The notes below the pieces were generated by a model. The model did not search any database. It was not told where the DNA came from and saw only the letters and a list, made by a program, of their open reading frames with translations. A program made the translations under genes and the position numbers. This document shows positions 1 through 5,526 of a stretch of 5,526 bases of DNA, in pieces; the stretch's first letter is position 1; every line of letters begins with the position of its first letter. The DNA is from a virus. The stretch spans positions 1 to 5,526 of the IMG/VR virus record IMGVR_UViG_3300045988_097647; one strand, given 5' to 3'.

Positions 1-79
1 ATTTTTTTTGCTCCTTAAATACAAACCAAGACACAAAATGTTAAGAATTTTTTCCCAAAAAGCGGGAGTAGCTTTTTTC
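1..79. repeat. Terminal redundancy of a circular genome (identical to 5448..5526)
   Basis: Positions 1-79 (attttttttgctccttaaatacaaaccaagacacaaaatgttaagaattttttcccaaaaagcgggagtagcttttttc) match 5448-5526 base for base. This implies a 5447-nt circular unit opened at an arbitrary point. Confidence 0.9.
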
Positions 80-310
80 TTCCGCCTGCGCTGCAGCTGA
101 GTGGCGAAAGCCATTTACGTCGTCAGTACCTCTTTTCTGCATGTTAACCAAATCATCCTGCATAGCGGCAGAAATAGCTTTAAGGCTTGCAGAGCCTTCG
201 CGGTTGTAGGTGCCATGACGAAACATATCAATAAAATCAACAACCTCTTGGATAAAAGGAATTACAGTGGACACGAGAAAGGTTAAAATTGCAGTAGTTT
301 TGTTTGACAT
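41..310 (-). CDS. Hypothetical small membrane protein (89 aa) with one N-terminal TM helix; candidate lysis or membrane-targeting accessory protein
   Basis: The ORF track gives 41..316 using a TTG start. An in-frame ATG at 310-308 has the SD GAGGTGA 6 nt upstream, and this SD overlaps the VP2 stop. Product: MSNKTTAILTFLVSTVIPFIQEVVDFI... followed by a hydrophilic C-terminal region (REGSASLKAISAAMQDDLVNMQKRGTDDVNG...). Residues ~6-22 form a hydrophobic helix containing a Pro. Stop TAA at 41-43. Confidence 0.5.
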   Translation of the reverse strand: MSNKTTAILTFLVSTVIPFIQEVVDFIDMFRHGTYNREGSASLKAISAAMQDDLVNMQKRGTDDVNGFRHSAAAQAEEKSYSRFLGKNS

Positions 311-321
311 AATCAATCACC

Positions 322-1119
322 TCATTTAGAAAAATAATTAGCAATACCGGAAAACAAACGATTAGCAGCACGGCCAATAGTATTCCAAGGTAAACCGTCA
401 TCAGAAAGGCCGAGGTCCTTATAATCCTTATTACGAGAAGTCTTATAATCATAATCAGCCTTAGCAACATTAGATAGCTGTGCATTATAAGCGGCAGAAC
501 TATTAGCAGCATTACCTTGAGCCAGCATCATAGTAGCTTGAGCAGGCATAACAACATTCATCATATACTGCTGACTAGCCTTTTGAGCGTCAATATACTC
601 GCCTTGCTTTTGAGCATTAGCTAAATTTTGCTTAACTAAAGCTAAATTGTCATTGTAAGAATCAGCAGCCAGCTTATTGGCAACAGAAATACCATACGTT
701 TCAGCATCATACTTCTTCGCACTAGCTCCAGCTAAAATAGTTTGAGCAGCTAAATTTTTTATTTGTTCATCGCTCATCTTTTCGGCAACCTGAGCTTGAC
801 GATTAGCAGCCTTAGCGGAATTACCAGCAGCAGAAGCAGACATACCAGCAGTAACACCTTCACCGAGATTATAGTTTGCAGAAAGAGCAGAAGCACCATT
901 AATAGAACCACCAATGCCTTGCGTAGCAGCAAGCATGGGATTAAGTCCAGCTTTTTGCATATCTTCCATAGCCCATTGATAACGATGCTGATAATTATAT
1001 ACATTACGCTGATTAGCTACAGTTGCAGCATGGCGAGCAGCAGAGTTAGAAAGAGAACCACCAATGAGAGACGAAATACCACCAGCAATAGCTCCAGCAG
1101 CAGATCCAAGAAATGACAT
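322..1119 (-). CDS. VP2: Minor capsid / DNA pilot protein VP2
   Basis: 265-aa ORF immediately downstream of VP1 (VP1 stop TAA, then AAAAAAGGAGTGATTTTTT, then ATG). N-terminus MSFLGSAAGAIAGGISSLIGG is Gly/Ala/Ser-rich. The protein is rich in Ala/Gln/Asn with low complexity and contains an AGLNPMLA-type segment, as in gokushovirus VP2 pilot proteins. Stop TGA at 322-324. Confidence 0.78.
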   Translation of the reverse strand: MSFLGSAAGAIAGGISSLIGGSLSNSAARHAATVANQRNVYNYQHRYQWAMEDMQKAGLNPMLAATQGIGGSINGASALSANYNLGEGVTAGMSASAAGNSAKAANRQAQVAEKMSDEQIKNLAAQTILAGASAKKYDAETYGISVANKLAADSYNDNLALVKQNLANAQKQGEYIDAQKASQQYMMNVVMPAQATMMLAQGNAANSSAAYNAQLSNVAKADYDYKTSRNKDYKDLGLSDDGLPWNTIGRAANRLFSGIANYFSK

Positions 1120-1136
1120 AAAAAATCACTCCTTTT

Positions 1137-2774
1137 TTAGAAATGACCCATCATACCGGGTATACCATACATAGGCATAGGACGAATACATTTTAAGTTA
1201 AATTTAACATCTAACAAGAAATGAGGATAGGACGGAACGGCAACTACGCGACTAATAGGCGGGTGGTCTTGAATAAACTCATCCGAAAGCGTAGGCAGCG
1301 TAGCGAATTTCTGTGACAAATGCCAAATGTCTAAAGGTTCTTTATAGGTTGAGCGGAATTGACCGGTAATCAAAGACGGCTTATAGCGATATTCTGCATA
1401 GCGTTCTTGATAGCCGAAAATTTTCTTATCATCATCATTTCCTTGGCAATAAATTTCAATGTTTTGAATAGCTTGTTCGCCTAAGTGAGCAAAGGACGGC
1501 CAATAGAAGTCCAGCACATCGGAGCGCAACCACATTTTATTAACGCCTTGCTGGTAAGTCAAATCAGCACGCACATTAATTAGGCCGATAACATAACCAA
1601 ATTCACTAAATGACTTGGTGAAAGCATGGTAACGCTGGGCGTTAAGTCCATATGCAGCTAAATTACCTTGTGGGGTTGTAGAGTCCGTAGAGCTTGTCTG
1701 AGTAACCGGGTTAATGTTCATCATACTAGAATGACTTCCAAGGAACTCAGGACGTTGCAAACGAGCATCGGGATTAGTTACACCGAAATGAGCTTGCAAT
1801 TTCTCCGTATAACGAGTACCGCCGCGGGCATCAATCTCATAATACCTTTGCAGCATAAACGCTTGACGAAGAGAATTAATGGTAATTGAAGTAGCAGAAG
1901 AAAGGTCAACTTTCAAACCGGATTTATAAGATTGAGGAAGGCCACTAACAGAACCCAAAGTAGGATTGAACGCCAAATGAGTACGGTCAGTAGGCGAAAG
2001 ATAAACGCCACCAGTAGCAACAGAACCAGAAACAGCATTATTATTAAAAATAAAATCACCGTCAGAAACAACAGGAGCAAATTGACCTAAAGGCAAATCA
2101 ACAGCCGGGCCTTTTTGTGGCCAAGGAAGCGCACCGGTGAAATAGTCATATCTTTTTCCGCGCGGAGCCGGGTCATACCAATTTTTAACACCGGACGGCA
2201 AACCATAATTAGGATTAGCGGTAGATTGTCCCATAGGTTCAAGTACTGTATTAGATTCGCCTTTGCTAACCTTAACAGATTTTTGCAGGTTCTCATCTCT
2301 GAACCACTCGTTCCAAATGAGCCAATACGAACGGAACGGCAAGCAGTTGACAGAAATATTCTTAAAAGTACCATTACTACAAGCTATACCCATATAATCG
2401 GGGAGCTTGTTTGTCATATCGCCGGTTAGAGAAACAGTAGGAACAAGGTAATCAGTAGAATCTTCGGGGTTCTCCTGCTCACCACAAAGATTTGCCCATT
2501 TATCATACACGAGCCTACTTGGAACAAAGAAAAAGAAGGACTCAATATAAATGTTATCCATGAACGGAACTACAGGAGTAGCCAAACGACAGAACTCCAC
2601 AGGGTTAAGAGTGAACGTATCGCCTGGAATAACTTCGTCGACAAAGTAAGGGATTAAAGCACCTTCGTTAAAGGTTGTCTTGTATACGTGACTTCTGTCA
2701 AAGACGGAGCGGCGAATATTAGCTTGCGGAATCATCGCAAAATGCGACTGATTAACGCGAATGTTACGAGCCAT
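1137..2774 (-). CDS. VP1: Major capsid protein VP1 (Microviridae F-like, gokushovirus type)
   Basis: 545-aa ORF, the largest in the window. N-terminus MARNIRVNQSHFAMIPQANIRRSVFDRSHV...IPGDTFTLNP is typical of gokushovirus VP1. ATG at 2774 is preceded on the coding strand by AAGGAG with an 8-nt spacer. Stop TAA at 1137-1139. The size (~530-570 aa class) and position upstream of a Gly/Ala-rich VP2 fit gokushovirus layout. Confidence 0.9.
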   Translation of the reverse strand: MARNIRVNQSHFAMIPQANIRRSVFDRSHVYKTTFNEGALIPYFVDEVIPGDTFTLNPVEFCRLATPVVPFMDNIYIESFFFFVPSRLVYDKWANLCGEQENPEDSTDYLVPTVSLTGDMTNKLPDYMGIACSNGTFKNISVNCLPFRSYWLIWNEWFRDENLQKSVKVSKGESNTVLEPMGQSTANPNYGLPSGVKNWYDPAPRGKRYDYFTGALPWPQKGPAVDLPLGQFAPVVSDGDFIFNNNAVSGSVATGGVYLSPTDRTHLAFNPTLGSVSGLPQSYKSGLKVDLSSATSITINSLRQAFMLQRYYEIDARGGTRYTEKLQAHFGVTNPDARLQRPEFLGSHSSMMNINPVTQTSSTDSTTPQGNLAAYGLNAQRYHAFTKSFSEFGYVIGLINVRADLTYQQGVNKMWLRSDVLDFYWPSFAHLGEQAIQNIEIYCQGNDDDKKIFGYQERYAEYRYKPSLITGQFRSTYKEPLDIWHLSQKFATLPTLSDEFIQDHPPISRVVAVPSYPHFLLDVKFNLKCIRPMPMYGIPGMMGHF

Positions 2775-2895
2775 AGTATTAACTCCTTAATTTTATTAAA
2801 CGACCGAAAAGCACGAGAACGGCATTTTCGTTATCAAATCAGAAGGGAATTAAAAATAAATAAAAGGCTTATTTTTGAAGGTTTTTCTGATTTTG

Positions 2896-2943
2896 TGTCA
2901 CCTTGACCAGTTACGATCAAGTAGGTAACTGGTCAAGGTGACA
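2896..2943 (-). promoter_or_regulatory. Perfect 19-bp inverted repeat with 10-nt loop in the VP3-VP1 intergenic region; candidate replication origin or structured regulatory element
   Basis: Plus 2896-2914 is tgtcaccttgaccagttac. The loop 2915-2924 is gatcaagtag. Plus 2925-2943 is gtaactggtcaaggtgaca, the exact reverse complement of the left arm. On the viral (coding) strand the loop reads CTACTTGATC. No U-tract follows on either strand, so it is not a classic intrinsic terminator. Confidence 0.6.
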
Positions 2944-2981
2944 AGGTTATTATTCTACATAAGTGAATATTAGCATATAGG

Positions 2982-3425
2982 TTATTTTTGCTCCAATTTA
3001 GACTCTCCTGCTACCGGAGTGACAGGTTCTACCGGAGTATCTACAATAGCTTTAGGTTTTAGGCCTAACTCTTCAAGCCTAGAAACAACTTTGGCGTCAG
3101 TAGATGTTAGAGCATCAAGCAGCATTCGTGGGTCATTGCCAAATTCAGCACGGACACTAGAAGGCAAATCTGCAAACTCTGCGTTAACATTAGCAACAAG
3201 GTTGCAAGCGGTTTCATAATCCGGGAGTAATGTGGTATCACCATATTGCAAAGTAGCCGGGTCATGTGCTCCAACAGAATCGACAATGCCGGTTGTGTTG
3301 AAATTGGCTATAATATGATGAATATCGCACTCTTCAGCGAAAGTTTGGTCAGCAAGCGAAGGCTGAGTAATTTCAACGTGAGGTTTTGGCGGTTGCTCAT
3401 CGTAAAGCGTATAAAATTTAGCCAT
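2982..3425 (-). CDS. VP3: Internal scaffolding protein VP3 (148 aa from ATG 3425; track ORF extends to TTG at 3572)
   Basis: The internal start MAKFYTLYDEQ... has SD AAAGGAG 10 nt upstream. The sequence ...ECDIHHIIANFNTTG...YGDTT...FADLPSSVRAEFGNDPRMLLDAL...LEELGL... matches the conserved gokushovirus VP3 pattern as I recall it (ECD-I..I...TG...YGD...F..LP...R..F.NDP...L.....LGL). It is acidic, as expected for a scaffolding protein. Stop TAA at 2982-2984. The 49-aa N-terminal extension in the track (TTG 3572) runs through a structured leader and is probably not translated. Confidence 0.6.
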   Translation of the reverse strand: MAKFYTLYDEQPPKPHVEITQPSLADQTFAEECDIHHIIANFNTTGIVDSVGAHDPATLQYGDTTLLPDYETACNLVANVNAEFADLPSSVRAEFGNDPRMLLDALTSTDAKVVSRLEELGLKPKAIVDTPVEPVTPVAGESKLEQK

Positions 3426-3543
3426 GCGTAAAAATCTCCTTTCTTTACCCGACAAGGCACGAGTAACGATTGCGTAAAGCGTAGGCTTGCGCCGTGTTAC
3501 GAAGATATGATATAGGCGGAGTGACCGGCAGCAAAGCACAGTC

Positions 3544-3562
3544 ATTTTGGCGTAGCCAAAAT
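3544..3562 (-). other. 8-bp stem / 3-nt loop hairpin in the putative VP3 leader
   Basis: Plus attttggc gta gccaaaat (3544-3551 and 3555-3562) is perfectly complementary. It lies ~120 nt upstream of the VP3 ATG on the coding strand, inside the region that the track reads as an N-terminal extension. Confidence 0.4.
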
Positions 3563-3635
3563 TTAAAAACAAAAAAGACGCTCAACATTACGCTGAACGC
3601 CTTTGATGTGTGGTATCACCACTTGCCTTATATGT

Positions 3636-3664
3636 AGTATACCACAAAATGAGAAAGCAGGCAA
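3636..3664 (-). promoter_or_regulatory. Sigma70-like promoter P2 (TTGCCT-N17-TGgTATACT) downstream of VP5 stop, upstream of VP3
   Basis: Coding strand: TAA TTGTAACGTACGC TTGCCT GCTTTCTCATTTTGTGG TATACT ACATATAAGG. The -35 is the complement of 3659-3664 and the -10 is the complement of 3636-3641, with a 17-nt spacer ending in TGG. The spacer shares GCTTT(T)TCTCAT...TGG with P1, and a TTGTAA motif lies just upstream, as at P1. Confidence 0.45.
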
Positions 3665-3677
3665 GCGTACGTTACAA

Positions 3678-3959
3678 TTACATTTTAGCACTCTCCGGAG
3701 GGGGGGTCAATAGCTCCGTGGCAGTGGAAAGCAGTAAAGTGGGATTTTGTGGGGAAAAGATACAGGTTTTGTCGTCAAACTCACCCAAATACATCAACAC
3801 AAAATCCTCGTGGTAGTCATGGATAATATTGGAACGCTCCGGGGTGGACACCTGATTAACCATAATTTGGAATTGACGAATGGCCATAGCATTATTTTGC
3901 TGAACGAAGGGCGGGTTCATCAGCTCGCCCTTGCGGTCATAAATACAGTATAATTTCAT
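3678..3959 (-). CDS. VP5: VP5-like non-structural protein (93 aa)
   Basis: ATG at 3959 has AAGGAG 8 nt upstream. N-terminus MKLYCIYDRKGELMNPPFVQQNNAMAIRQF and the ...YLGEFDDKT... segment resemble the F/Y-x-V/I-x-D-x-K...PF...A-x-R-x-F...GEFDD pattern I associate with gokushovirus VP5. Its position between VP4 and VP3 matches the gokushovirus order. Stop TAA at 3678-3680. The C-terminus PPPESAKM is encoded through a G7 homopolymer (3700-3706). Confidence 0.5.
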   Translation of the reverse strand: MKLYCIYDRKGELMNPPFVQQNNAMAIRQFQIMVNQVSTPERSNIIHDYHEDFVLMYLGEFDDKTCIFSPQNPTLLLSTATELLTPPPESAKM

Positions 3960-3963
3960 AAAA

Positions 3964-4293
3964 TCACTCCTTTTTTAAAGCAGAAAGCTGGGCATCAAGC
4001 TCGGCGTTAATTTTAGAAATGCCTTTATCCATAGAATCATCACGAGCAACCGAGTGAAGAAAAAGTTTAAAACGATGCAGCTGCTCTTTATCCATGAGAT
4101 AGTAAAAACCGTCATAGAGAACAATAGAAAAAGTATAACGACCATTTTCACCTTTGTAATCATTAGCAGCACGATAAGAACGAGCCTGACCATAAGAAGG
4201 GAATACAGTCCAAGACGGAAACTGTTCAAGAGATTTACGGATACGAGCATTATTTTTTTGGGAAAAATTAGGATTAAAATAATCTTTTAACAT
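3964..4293 (-). CDS. Hypothetical protein (110 aa), accessory ORF between VP4 and VP5
   Basis: The track ORF 3964..4350 begins at TTG. An in-frame ATG at 4293-4291 has the strong SD GTGAGGTAA 7 nt upstream and lies ~25 nt downstream of a consensus promoter. Product: MLKDYFNPNFSQKNNARIRKSLEQFPSW...GRYTFSIVLYDGFYYLMDKEQLHRFKLF...KINAELDAQLSALKKE. I do not recognise any motif in it. Stop TGA at 3964-3966 lies 4 nt before the next ATG, with the next gene's SD inside this ORF's 3' end, suggesting translational coupling. Confidence 0.55.
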   Translation of the reverse strand: MLKDYFNPNFSQKNNARIRKSLEQFPSWTVFPSYGQARSYRAANDYKGENGRYTFSIVLYDGFYYLMDKEQLHRFKLFLHSVARDDSMDKGISKINAELDAQLSALKKE

Positions 4294-4318
4294 ATTGCTT
4301 ACCTCACTTTCTATATAT

Positions 4319-4347
4319 ATTATACCATGAGAAAAAGCAACTGTCAA
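4319..4347 (-). promoter_or_regulatory. Near-consensus sigma70-type promoter P1 (TTGACA-N17-TGgTATAAT) driving ORF110/VP5
   Basis: Coding-strand sequence: TTGTTGACAG TTGCTTTTTCTCATGG TATAAT ATATATAGAAAGTGAGGTAAGCAAT ATG. The -35 TTGACA is the complement of 4342-4347. The 17-nt spacer ends in TGG, giving an extended -10. The -10 TATAAT is the complement of 4319-4324. The predicted start site lies ~25 nt before the ATG at 4293. Confidence 0.6.
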
Positions 4348-4350
4348 CAA

Positions 4351-4380
4351 CTTTTTACAACTTTTTACAACTTTTACAAA
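4351..4380 (-). repeat. Three tandem 10-bp direct repeats (coding strand TTGTAAAAAG x3, third copy TTTGTAAAAG) abutting the -35 of P1 and overlapping the Rep stop codon
   Basis: Plus strand reads ctttttacaa ctttttacaa cttttacaaa (4351-4380). The coding strand reads TTTGTAAAAG TTGTAAAAAG TTGTAAAAAG TTGTTGACA. The Rep stop TAA at 4374-4376 lies inside the array. Confidence 0.7.
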
Positions 4381-5318
4381 CCTAAATTATCAAAATCACG
4401 CTCAAATTGTTCCTGCCGGTGCTTCAAAATCTTCTCTTTTGCTTCCAGCCTTTTGCAATCGATGACGGCAGCCTTTGCATTTTCGGCCTTATTTTGCTTG
4501 TATATACTATACCAAACGGGGTTACTGCGCTCAAATAGTGTTTGATAATAGCGAGGTATCTTATATTTAGCTCCATTAATAGTTACAAAGCCTAATTTAA
4601 AAATATCTTCTGAATAAAGGCCAAAATAATCGGCTCCTATGCCAGGCTTAAGAGAACTACCGACAAACTCCGGAGATATGCCAAGAGCATCATACATACA
4701 GGCATTTTTACCGGTCTGCTTTTTAAGGCTATATTTAGCAACATACCGGGCGGATTCAAAGGTAATCGCTCCAACAGTGTTGAAACCATATGGCCAAAGC
4801 CGCTCCAACGTAGGGGAACGAAAAAGATTGTAACCAGCTGTTAACGCCGATACTTTGCGAACATCCGAAGGAAACCAACCAAAGCACAAAATATGATAAT
4901 GCGGCCTGCGGTTAAGATCGCCATACTCACCGCAACAAAGAAAACGTATCTTAGAATTGTCATGATAATCTAAATAACGACGTAACCTTTTAAAAAAAAG
5001 TTGTAAATGCTCACGATGCAGCGAGCAGTCAGCTGGAAGGCAATCATCGTTATAGGTTAACGTGATGAAGCAGTTATGCAAATGCAGTTTAGCCTCATGA
5101 ACGCAACGAATAGCCCAATCATTAGCCTTGTCAAGACGGCAGCCTAAGCATTGACCGCACGGAACGACAACAGCATAATTATTAGCTAGCTCATTTTTAG
5201 CATACTCCAACGATTTACCGGACAGCTGACGATAAGCAAAAAAATTTGATAGCTCATACTTGCCGTTAGCGTTAGGCACAGCAGAACGTTTAGCAAACAT
5301 AGGATTAAGGCAAGTCAT
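4374..5318 (-). CDS. VP4: Replication initiation protein VP4 (rolling-circle Rep, phiX174 gene A family)
   Basis: 317-aa ORF in the track, 4374..5327, which starts at an in-frame GTG at 5327. The first ATG is at 5318 (the 4th codon of the track ORF). RCR motif 1 CFITLTY lies at 5052-5072. Motif 2 HYH, within PHYHILCF, lies at 4893-4901. Motif 3 YVAKYSLKK places the catalytic Tyr residues near 4731-4745. A CGQCLGC zinc-finger-like cluster, common in gokushovirus VP4, is present. Stop TAA at 4374-4376. Confidence 0.9.
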   Translation of the reverse strand: MTCLNPMFAKRSAVPNANGKYELSNFFAYRQLSGKSLEYAKNELANNYAVVVPCGQCLGCRLDKANDWAIRCVHEAKLHLHNCFITLTYNDDCLPADCSLHREHLQLFFKRLRRYLDYHDNSKIRFLCCGEYGDLNRRPHYHILCFGWFPSDVRKVSALTAGYNLFRSPTLERLWPYGFNTVGAITFESARYVAKYSLKKQTGKNACMYDALGISPEFVGSSLKPGIGADYFGLYSEDIFKLGFVTINGAKYKIPRYYQTLFERSNPVWYSIYKQNKAENAKAAVIDCKRLEAKEKILKHRQEQFERDFDNLGL

Positions 5319-5335
5319 AATACACACACTTTCTG

Positions 5336-5449
5336 CTACATGCGGATACCGCCGCGCATGTTGCGAGATTTAAGATTTTTAAGCCGCGGAACGGCGTGAT
5401 TACGAAAGTTCCGGCGTGAACTACCGCGAGAAATTCTACTTCTTCTCAT
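5336..5449 (-). CDS. VP8: Small arginine-rich DNA-binding protein (VP8 / phiX174 J-like), 37 aa
   Basis: Hand translation of the reverse complement of 5336..5449: ATG AGA AGA AGT AGA ATT TCT CGC GGT AGT TCA CGC CGG AAC TTT CGT AAT CAC GCC GTT CCG CGG CTT AAA AAT CTT AAA TCT CGC AAC ATG CGC GGC GGT ATC CGC ATG TAG. This gives MRRSRISRGSSRRNFRNHAVPRLKNLKSRNMRGGIRM, with 11 Arg and 3 Lys in 37 residues. SD AAGGAG lies 8 nt upstream. The ORF sits directly upstream of Rep. The ATG spans the circular junction (5449 equals window position 2). It is missing from the ORF track because of the length cutoff. Confidence 0.6.
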   Translation of the reverse strand: MRRSRISRGSSRRNFRNHAVPRLKNLKSRNMRGGIRM

Positions 5450-5526
5450 TTTTTTTGCTCCTTAAATACAAACCAAGACACAAAATGTTAAGAATTTTTT
5501 CCCAAAAAGCGGGAGTAGCTTTTTTC
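5448..5526. repeat. Second copy of terminal redundancy (circularisation overlap)
   Basis: Exact copy of window positions 1-79. Confidence 0.9.

Follow-up and report, generated by a model that had tools for sequence, protein, structure and literature searches.

In E. coli promoters with an upstream (UP) element, of the rrnB P1 type, A-rich tracts lie upstream of the -35 hexamer near -43, -53 and -63, all on the same side of the helix (PMC3326320; PMC2613000). Of the RNA polymerase alpha subunits' C-terminal domains (alpha-CTDs), alpha-CTD I occupies a proximal subsite, whose centre is near -43 (PMC3326320; subsite ranges also in PMC2613000), and alpha-CTD II binds near -53, and -63, -73 and positions beyond them on that face of the helix are also open to it (PMC3326320). 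That alpha-CTD prefers A-tracts is explained by their narrowed minor groove (PMC3326320; PMC2613000). Promoters can also carry an extended -10 element, TGn, whose TRTG form is typical of Gram-positive promoters (PMC2613000). In the microvirus phiX174, three constitutive promoters for the host polymerase are combined with leaky terminators (PMC11527146). Here we analyse a predicted promoter preceded by tandem 10-bp repeats at the 3' end of the replication protein gene (VP4/Rep) in IMG/VR virus record IMGVR_UViG_3300045988_097647. The window, by which we mean the whole stretch of 5,526 nt that was analysed (positions 1 to 5,526 of that record), is the complete circular genome of a gut gokushovirus (Microviridae), a small single-stranded DNA phage, with all its genes on the minus strand; since positions 1-79 are an exact copy of 5448-5526, a 79-nt terminal duplication from assembly overlap, it corresponds to a circle of 5447 nt. 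Taken as a whole, the locus is probably a host sigma70/sigmaA promoter with UP-like phased A-tracts that drives a transcript of VP5 and of ORF110 (ORF, open reading frame).

Read along the minus strand from 4379 to 4319, the element is TTGTAAAAG TTGTAAAAAG TTGTAAAAAG TTG-TTGACA-GTTGCTTTTTCTCATGG-TATAAT. Both hexamers, the -35 TTGACA (4347-4342) and the -10 TATAAT (4324-4319), agree with the consensus at 6/6 positions. The 17-nt spacer between them (GTTGCTTTTTCTCATGG, 4341-4325) begins with GTTG, as in the repeat units, and includes the extended -10 TGn (T4327 G4326 G4325). The -10 hexamer is followed by an AT-rich discriminator and a short leader (4318-4294), with a Shine-Dalgarno site, GAGGT, at 4305-4301. 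The original prediction, TTGACA-17-TATAAT with a TG extended -10, was exact, and this is the sole 12/12 promoter match in the window. None of 200 dinucleotide-preserving shuffles contained the exact pattern TTGACA-N16-18-TATAAT. Every sequence-level feature by which a sigma70/sigmaA promoter with a UP-like upstream region would be recognised is found here. Judged by these features, the element is a bona fide sigma70-type promoter that has been conserved in evolution, and it is very likely to be functional. Transcription from it, a start site near 4312 and its strength are predicted.

Conservation was followed in relatives gathered through Rep-based scans of viral contigs, metagenomes and genomes, together with contigs encoding distant ORF110 homologues. 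These contigs and scans replaced a locus search with an ORF110 alignment, which had confirmed only 5 loci, and a scan of viral contigs with TATAAT-N6-AGAAAGYGAGGT was too generic, returning mostly unrelated large phage contigs, and was dropped in favour of loci found through proteins. Since all relatives were found by their Rep or ORF110, and the promoter played no part in their selection, the sample is unbiased toward promoter-keeping genomes. It comprises 28 promoter-bearing loci, with 24 distinct sequences of the Rep-ORF110 interval. TATAAT is invariant in all 24. A -35 hexamer is present in 22 of them (TTGACA in 19, TTGACT in 2 and TTTACT in 1), always at a spacing of 17 nt (22/22), while the interior of the spacer is variable, with column conservation of 0.3-0.8. 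TGn is found in 23/24. The -35 unit has been lost twice, through a 10-bp deletion in L011 and a 20-bp deletion in L022, and both genomes retain TGnTATAAT; the single genome without TG, L002, retains TTGACA. That the hexamers and the spacer length are conserved while the spacer sequence is free is the signature expected of a working promoter. In an alignment of 23 genomes, conservation is 0.926 over 4365-4336 and 0.925 over 4312-4283, which holds the Shine-Dalgarno site and the start of ORF110, against a genome mean of 0.80, with 0.71 for the third codon positions of Rep and 0.456 for ORF110, the most variable gene. AGAAAGTGAGGT in the discriminator and leader region is likewise conserved in relatives. 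One subgroup, with identities of ~68% in Rep and 34-46% in ORF110, still has the promoter intact.

Upstream of the core, Tandem Repeats Finder detects at 4347-4379 a repeat of period 10 with 3.4 copies and 95% matches, and the longest lag-10 identity run (s[i]=s[i+10]) is 19, compared with a maximum of 13 in 500 shuffles (0/500 reach 19). On the minus strand, two units of TTGTAAAAAG occupy 4360-4351 and 4370-4361, and the distal unit, TTGTAAAAG, occupies 4379-4371. The three head-to-tail copies described in the original prediction do form a tandem 10-bp array, but only two are exact copies of TTGTAAAAAG, the third being the 9-nt TTGTAAAAG. The overlap with the end of Rep that had been ascribed to the repeats holds for this distal copy, which covers the last codon TTG (Leu, 4379-4377) and the stop TAA (4376-4374); the other copies lie outside Rep. 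A fourth repeat-like 10-mer, TTGTTGACAG (4350-4341), carries the -35 hexamer.

A comparison of repeat copy number among related genomes had been proposed together with the prediction. The number varies from 1 to 4 in whole 10-bp units, L004 and L007 having four, and the separation between the Rep stop and the -10 hexamer (25, 42, 44-45, 52-53 or 62-63 nt) changes in steps of one unit. Cut in register, the 56 full units read xxAAAAGTTG, with AAAGTTG 96-100% invariant and variation confined to the first two positions (T/C, then A/T/G). All 56 are exactly 10 nt long and none is 9 or 11 nt; the distal unit is 9 or 10 nt in relatives. Where the A-tract goes from A5 to A4, it does so by substitution (CTAAAAG, CGAAAAG), without change of length, and every promoter-bearing genome keeps at least one A-tract unit. 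L146 carries the -35-like unit TTGTTGAAAG twice, and in L023 the spacer itself is a canonical A-tract unit, CTAAAAGTTG. A distant subgroup carries TGTGGTATAAT, the TRTG form of the extended -10 (full TGTG), and shows GTTG at 10-bp intervals between about -60 and TGTGG of the extended -10. The promoter is thus embedded in a small tandem repeat that gains and loses whole units. On a more speculative view, all of it from about -63 to -14 would be built of the 10-bp repeat xxAAAAGTTG, one unit having turned into the -35, and the spacer of the distant subgroup would be a further unit. Indels of 10 bp are not multiples of three, so that the array is noncoding on both strands. An antisense ORF at 4327-4545 (plus strand) was ruled out as coding, since the 10-bp indels in relatives would break its frame, and a hairpin pairing an A-tract with the spacer (AAAAAG with CTTTTT) was dropped because the T-run of the spacer is not conserved.

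When the -10 hexamer is numbered -12 to -7, the A-tracts are A5 at -44 to -40 in the proximal unit, A5 at -54 to -50 in the next and A4 at -63 to -60 in the distal one. Their centres at -42, -52 and -61.5 compare well with the alpha-CTD subsites at -43, -53 and -63, the first two units occupying the proximal and distal subsite positions. The A-rich UP element, one of the options raised in the original prediction, agrees with this spacing, and we lean, by a little, towards the repeats acting as a UP-like element through putative contact with alpha-CTD. We envisage that the polymerase would recognise the core through the consensus -35, the 17-nt spacer, the extended -10 (TGn) and the consensus -10. 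The A4-5 tracts, one helical turn apart on the face where two alpha-CTDs dock, would increase polymerase recruitment and could add some intrinsic bending. The array would behave as a small tandem repeat, one unit of which holds the -35, and whole units would be gained or lost through slippage. Slippage by whole units would keep the helical phase, and an occasional loss of the -35 would leave the promoter dependent on the extended -10.

The element both resembles and differs from known promoters. Compared with the E. coli UP-element promoters, the tracts of the window stand in exact tandem repeats of 10 bp, separated by a GTTG that does not vary, and the role of alpha-CTD is a prediction. The selected UP consensus is a mix of A- and T-tracts, unlike the array. 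Gram-positive sigmaA promoters share the consensus -35 and -10, the 17-nt spacer and TGn/TRTG (PMC2613000), as well as upstream A-runs. A similar layout is found for early promoters of staphylococcal Twort-like phages, among them ZCSS1 and JD007, where the intergenic sequence AAAAAAAGTTTGCTAAAAGTG-TTGACA-17-TATACT-ATATATAGAAAGT is arranged nearly as in the window; these are 140-kb double-stranded DNA phages whose promoters have no regular tandem array, and the likeness, ~77-82% over ~65 nt, is one of architecture and does not imply homology. A repeat-tuned promoter is that of sabA in H. pylori, in which a slippage-prone repeat lies by the -35 and its length alters the geometry between upstream region and core (PMC4081817). 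That repeat is a homopolymer which shifts the helical phase in 1-bp steps, whereas the unit of the window is one helical turn, so that phase is kept, and the changes seen here are between lineages.

Several observations weigh against the picture of a promoter with a UP-like upstream region. In every unit GTTG varies as little as the A-tract does, and a model in which alpha-CTD reads the minor groove requires none of that; the invariance of GTTG could reflect repeat homogenisation or a sequence-specific binder. The predicted intrinsic curvature is moderate, at 24-34 degrees per 30 bp, or the 95.5th-99.7th percentile of the genome depending on the sign convention, in a wedge model which gave 40 degrees for an A5N5 control and on which our reading does not lean. 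Slippage yields whole-unit indels in any case, so that the preservation of phase may be mutational and not selected. With a Rep identity of 85-97%, the majority of relatives are near ones, and the argument from conservation loses power accordingly; the start site and promoter strength are predictions from sequence. Moreover, two genomes, L005 and L140, have lost the promoter, so that the unit is dispensable and VP5 can be expressed in some other way.

Of the explanations that compete with this picture, a chance match to the consensus without a role in transcription is very improbable. Consensus scans do yield many false positives, and that of the window returned 22 sites where 12.7 were expected, but 12/12 with TG was reached in 0/200 shuffles, the pattern of conservation is specific to the promoter elements, and the orientation and distance to the conserved Shine-Dalgarno site and ATG suit a promoter. 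We would give no more credence to the idea, put forward in the original prediction, that the repeats are iterons bound by Rep, whether for the origin or for self-regulation of Rep. Tandem direct repeats right at the end of a rep gene are suggestive in this respect, and the Reps of circular Rep-encoding single-stranded (CRESS) DNA viruses, like many plasmid Reps, use iterons; Rep proteins of the Microviridae, such as protein A of phiX174, are not, however, known to do so. The array holds no hairpin or nick-site motif, and the single-stranded DNA fold of array and promoter is unremarkable (z = +0.21), a value that also rules out an M13-like single-strand origin or single-strand promoter at the array. 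Nor is its position that of an origin, as a far better candidate, the hairpin at 2943-2896, lies 1.4 kb away and offers a natural Rep target, which leaves little reason to put Rep at the array. On the coding strand of the window, AAAAGTTG occurs in the array only, and no copies flank that hairpin. The lineage of L005 and L140 still has Rep without the array, and since the array lies downstream of rep, it cannot be the operator of rep itself. The proposal of Rep binding sites is not supported by these comparisons.

More serious competitors concern what, if anything, the repeats do. The array may be a functionally neutral by-product of slippage around the -35 unit, kept uniform by further slippage, next to a core promoter that would be equally good without it, which we regard as unlikely, though less so than any other alternative. 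A core at full consensus that also has TGn should have little need of additional recruitment, copy number ranges from 1 to 4 among relatives, some units resemble copies of the -35 unit (the two of TTGTTGAAAG in L146) or, as with CTAAAAGTTG, lie within the spacer (L023), and L011 and L022 have lost whole units. Neutral drift accounts poorly, however, for AAAGTTG being 96-100% identical over 56 units in 24 sequences when the adjacent Rep third positions score 0.71, for the lack of any unit of 9 or 11 nt despite slippage-prone A-runs, save in the unit farthest from the promoter, and for the retention of at least one A-tract unit in every promoter-bearing genome. It is quite unlikely that the AAAGTTG units bind a sequence-specific activator or repressor of ORF110-VP5, be it ORF110, VP5 or a host regulator of the kind that binds direct repeats in tandem. 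Such a binder would explain why GTTG does not vary and returns at 10-bp intervals, again where the spacer begins and, among the distant subgroup, directly ahead of the -10; the PHROG to which VP5 belongs carries the annotation 'DNA binding protein', and ORF110, encoded immediately downstream, has a confidently predicted fold. That fold matches no DNA-binding fold, though, the protein partner is putative, the coding strand holds no copy of the motif outside the array, and the units are unchanged even where ORF110 identity drops to 34%, a poor fit to a co-evolving pair of protein and site. WalR/PhoP/OmpR-type sites were considered and rejected. The consensus of the WalR/PhoP type is TGTWAH-N5-TGTWAH; the window has TGTAAA-N4-TGTAAA, with a spacing of 10 and not 11, and the half-site is not conserved, reading TGCAAA, TGCTAA or TGCGAA in most relatives. 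More speculatively still, GTTG repeated once per helical turn over up to five turns may be a series of sites where a phage or host protein docks, or the array may be a slippage-driven dial for ORF110 expression, a pair of ideas to which we assign a small probability. If the dial were real, whole-unit gains would add polymerase docking sites and losses would delete the -35, making the promoter depend on its extended -10.

With the UP-like promoter as our preferred reading, the host housekeeping RNA polymerase (sigma70/sigmaA) would use it as the main promoter of a short ORF110-VP5 unit. From the predicted start near 4312 it is 19 nt to the ATG of ORF110 (109 aa, 4293-3964, minus strand), with the GAGGT Shine-Dalgarno site between them, and VP5 (3959-3678, minus; PF20577, E = 1.3e-20; phrog_1670) begins 4 nt past the end of ORF110. 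After VP5 comes an intrinsic terminator (3604-3564, minus), consisting of a 14-pair hairpin (3604-3574) and a T run, with compensatory changes in 10 pairs across 16 relatives; it is likely the 3' end of the ORF110-VP5 transcript, which would be ~745 nt long if it ran from near 4312 to the hairpin. The earlier suggestion that the promoter drives ORF110 and VP5 fits this placement, in that the predicted start is close upstream, VP5 adjoins ORF110 and a covarying terminator follows. ORF110 has 71 homologues, all on gokushovirus-sized contigs, and their invariant MLKDY start confirms the ATG at 4293. No match to ORF110 was found in Pfam or PHROG. Its AlphaFold2 model (mean predicted local distance difference test, pLDDT, of 93) consists of two helices, a beta-hairpin and a long C-terminal helix, and found no fold match in the PDB, thus giving no hint of a regulator role. 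ORF110 is a clade-specific accessory protein.

The promoter and ORF110 behave together as a clade-specific accessory cassette. Among 31 distant gokushoviruses (Rep 30-46% identical), there was no ORF110, no promoter of at least 11/12 matches and no 10-bp repeat at the Rep end, and the element is therefore specific to its clade. In L005 and L140, which come from two independent data sets, a deletion in the region matching window ~4380-4100 has taken out the array and the promoter along with the 5' half of ORF110; the junction lies at a GTTGT microhomology and is followed by a 3' remnant of ORF110 and then VP5. In another subgroup (L151, L152, L153 and L155; Rep ~39% identical), TTGACA-17-CATACT with TG stands exactly at the Rep end, so that a promoter after rep may have arisen more than once in gokushoviruses. 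The cassette resembles the morons of double-stranded DNA phages, which are accessory genes with their own promoters, in that ORF110 is hypervariable, dispensable, clade-specific and inserted between VP4 and VP5, with a strong predicted promoter of its own upstream; it is unlike them in having no terminator directly after ORF110, so that VP5 shares the transcript.

Further promoter-like sites are found in the 250-nt non-coding region between VP5 and VP3 (window 3426-3677, minus strand), two conserved ones lying at the VP5 end and just after it. The one is TTGACy-16/17-TAAAAT with TG, its -10 near 3687; the other is TTGCCy-17-TATAAT/TATACT with TGTG, its -10 at 3641-3636. Both are conserved in 21-23 of 23 genomes and probably serve VP3, VP1 and VP2. 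The covarying terminator begins ~25 nt past the second predicted start, and within the region CTTGCC/GGCAAG and TGTGGTAT/ATACCACA are complementary and interleaved; the region could be a ~60-nt short RNA, an attenuator or a single-strand origin. As in the microvirus phiX174, whose circular genome has its gene dosage set by sigma70-type promoters of the host kind and by intrinsic terminators (PMC11527146), the window would combine three conserved promoter-like sites (-10 near 4324, 3687 and 3641) with a terminator. The two differ in subfamily, gene order and promoter positions.

With respect to the host, 7/8 genes, all except Rep, carry AAGGAG or GAGGT(GA) 6-9 nt before the ATG. Bacteroidetes have a different promoter consensus and little Shine-Dalgarno pairing, and with Shine-Dalgarno sites in 7/8 genes it was reasonable to exclude a Bacteroidetes host, as had been done. 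The accompanying proposal of an Enterobacteriaceae-like or Firmicutes host stands in its second part only, on slight clues: no DNA match to the window was found in 5,426 E. coli genomes, which leaves the Enterobacteriaceae without support. A relative on a whole-genome contig is binned as "MAG: Clostridiales bacterium" (MAG, metagenome-assembled genome), one ORF110 homologue is labelled Phascolarctobacterium, and sequences that resemble the promoter in blastn come almost exclusively from phages of Staphylococcus, Streptococcus and Enterococcus. The MAG labels, the TRTG in the distant subgroup and the promoter look-alikes hint weakly at Firmicutes rather than Enterobacteriaceae.

The better candidate for an origin is a perfect 19-bp hairpin at 2943-2896 on the minus strand, which is the viral and coding strand, with a DNA fold of -20.8 kcal/mol (z = -8.5). 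No 30-mer in the genome is more conserved than the one that it holds (0.967), and across relatives the stem covaries. Its loop (CCTACTTGATAG, or CTACTTGATC) is nearly invariant and shares ACTTGAT(A) with the nick site of the phiX174 viral-strand origin, AACTTG|ATATTAATAAC (AACTTG|ATATT), annotated at 4306 of NC_001422. In 16/29 distant gokushovirus loci, (CCT)ACTTGAT lies in the loop of stems of 7-17 bp that differ in sequence. The hairpin is a strong candidate for the gokushovirus plus-strand origin, and is probably of more use to gokushovirus biology than the promoter.

The promoter itself is an ordinary regulatory element of a known class, to which its tandem-repeat build and the series of unit indels are an addition, with no new mechanism. 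Gokushoviruses are abundant in gut viromes and their transcription has hardly been studied; our literature search for gokushovirus promoters and origins found no paper that maps them. The analysis offers a testable transcription map for one gut clade, comprising a strong predicted promoter after rep, the ORF110-VP5 unit and a terminator. It also provides a natural series of promoter variants, with one to four upstream units and some without the -35 or TG, that could be used to measure the contribution of each element.

The other genes of the circle are those of a gokushovirus. GenBank phages nearest to the window are at most ~70% identical, and the similarity is confined to VP1/VP2. VP4/Rep occupies 5327-4374 (minus strand; PF23343, E = 1.4e-23; phrog_942, E = 2e-106), its GTG at 5327 being a mechanical ORF start, with ATG 5318 also possible, and its stop TAA lying at 4376-4374. 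The lack of a Shine-Dalgarno site together with the ambiguous GTG/ATG start suggests low translation of Rep. Also on the minus strand are the scaffold protein VP3 (3425-2982, ATG at 3425; PF09675), the capsid protein VP1 (2774-1137; PF02305), the pilot protein VP2 (1119-322) and a gene of ~88 aa near 310-41. Rfam gave just two sub-threshold chance matches in the window, none of them at the promoter or repeats. A poly-C run at the 3' end of VP5 (window 3690-3705, minus) varies in length among relatives, from ~7 to ~19 C (L008), and may be a slippage-prone homopolymer or an assembly artefact. Just upstream of Rep, an arginine-rich ORF of 37 aa (MRRSRISRGSSRRNFRNH..., 5449-5336, minus) has an AAGGAG Shine-Dalgarno site and probably encodes a small DNA-binding or packaging protein.

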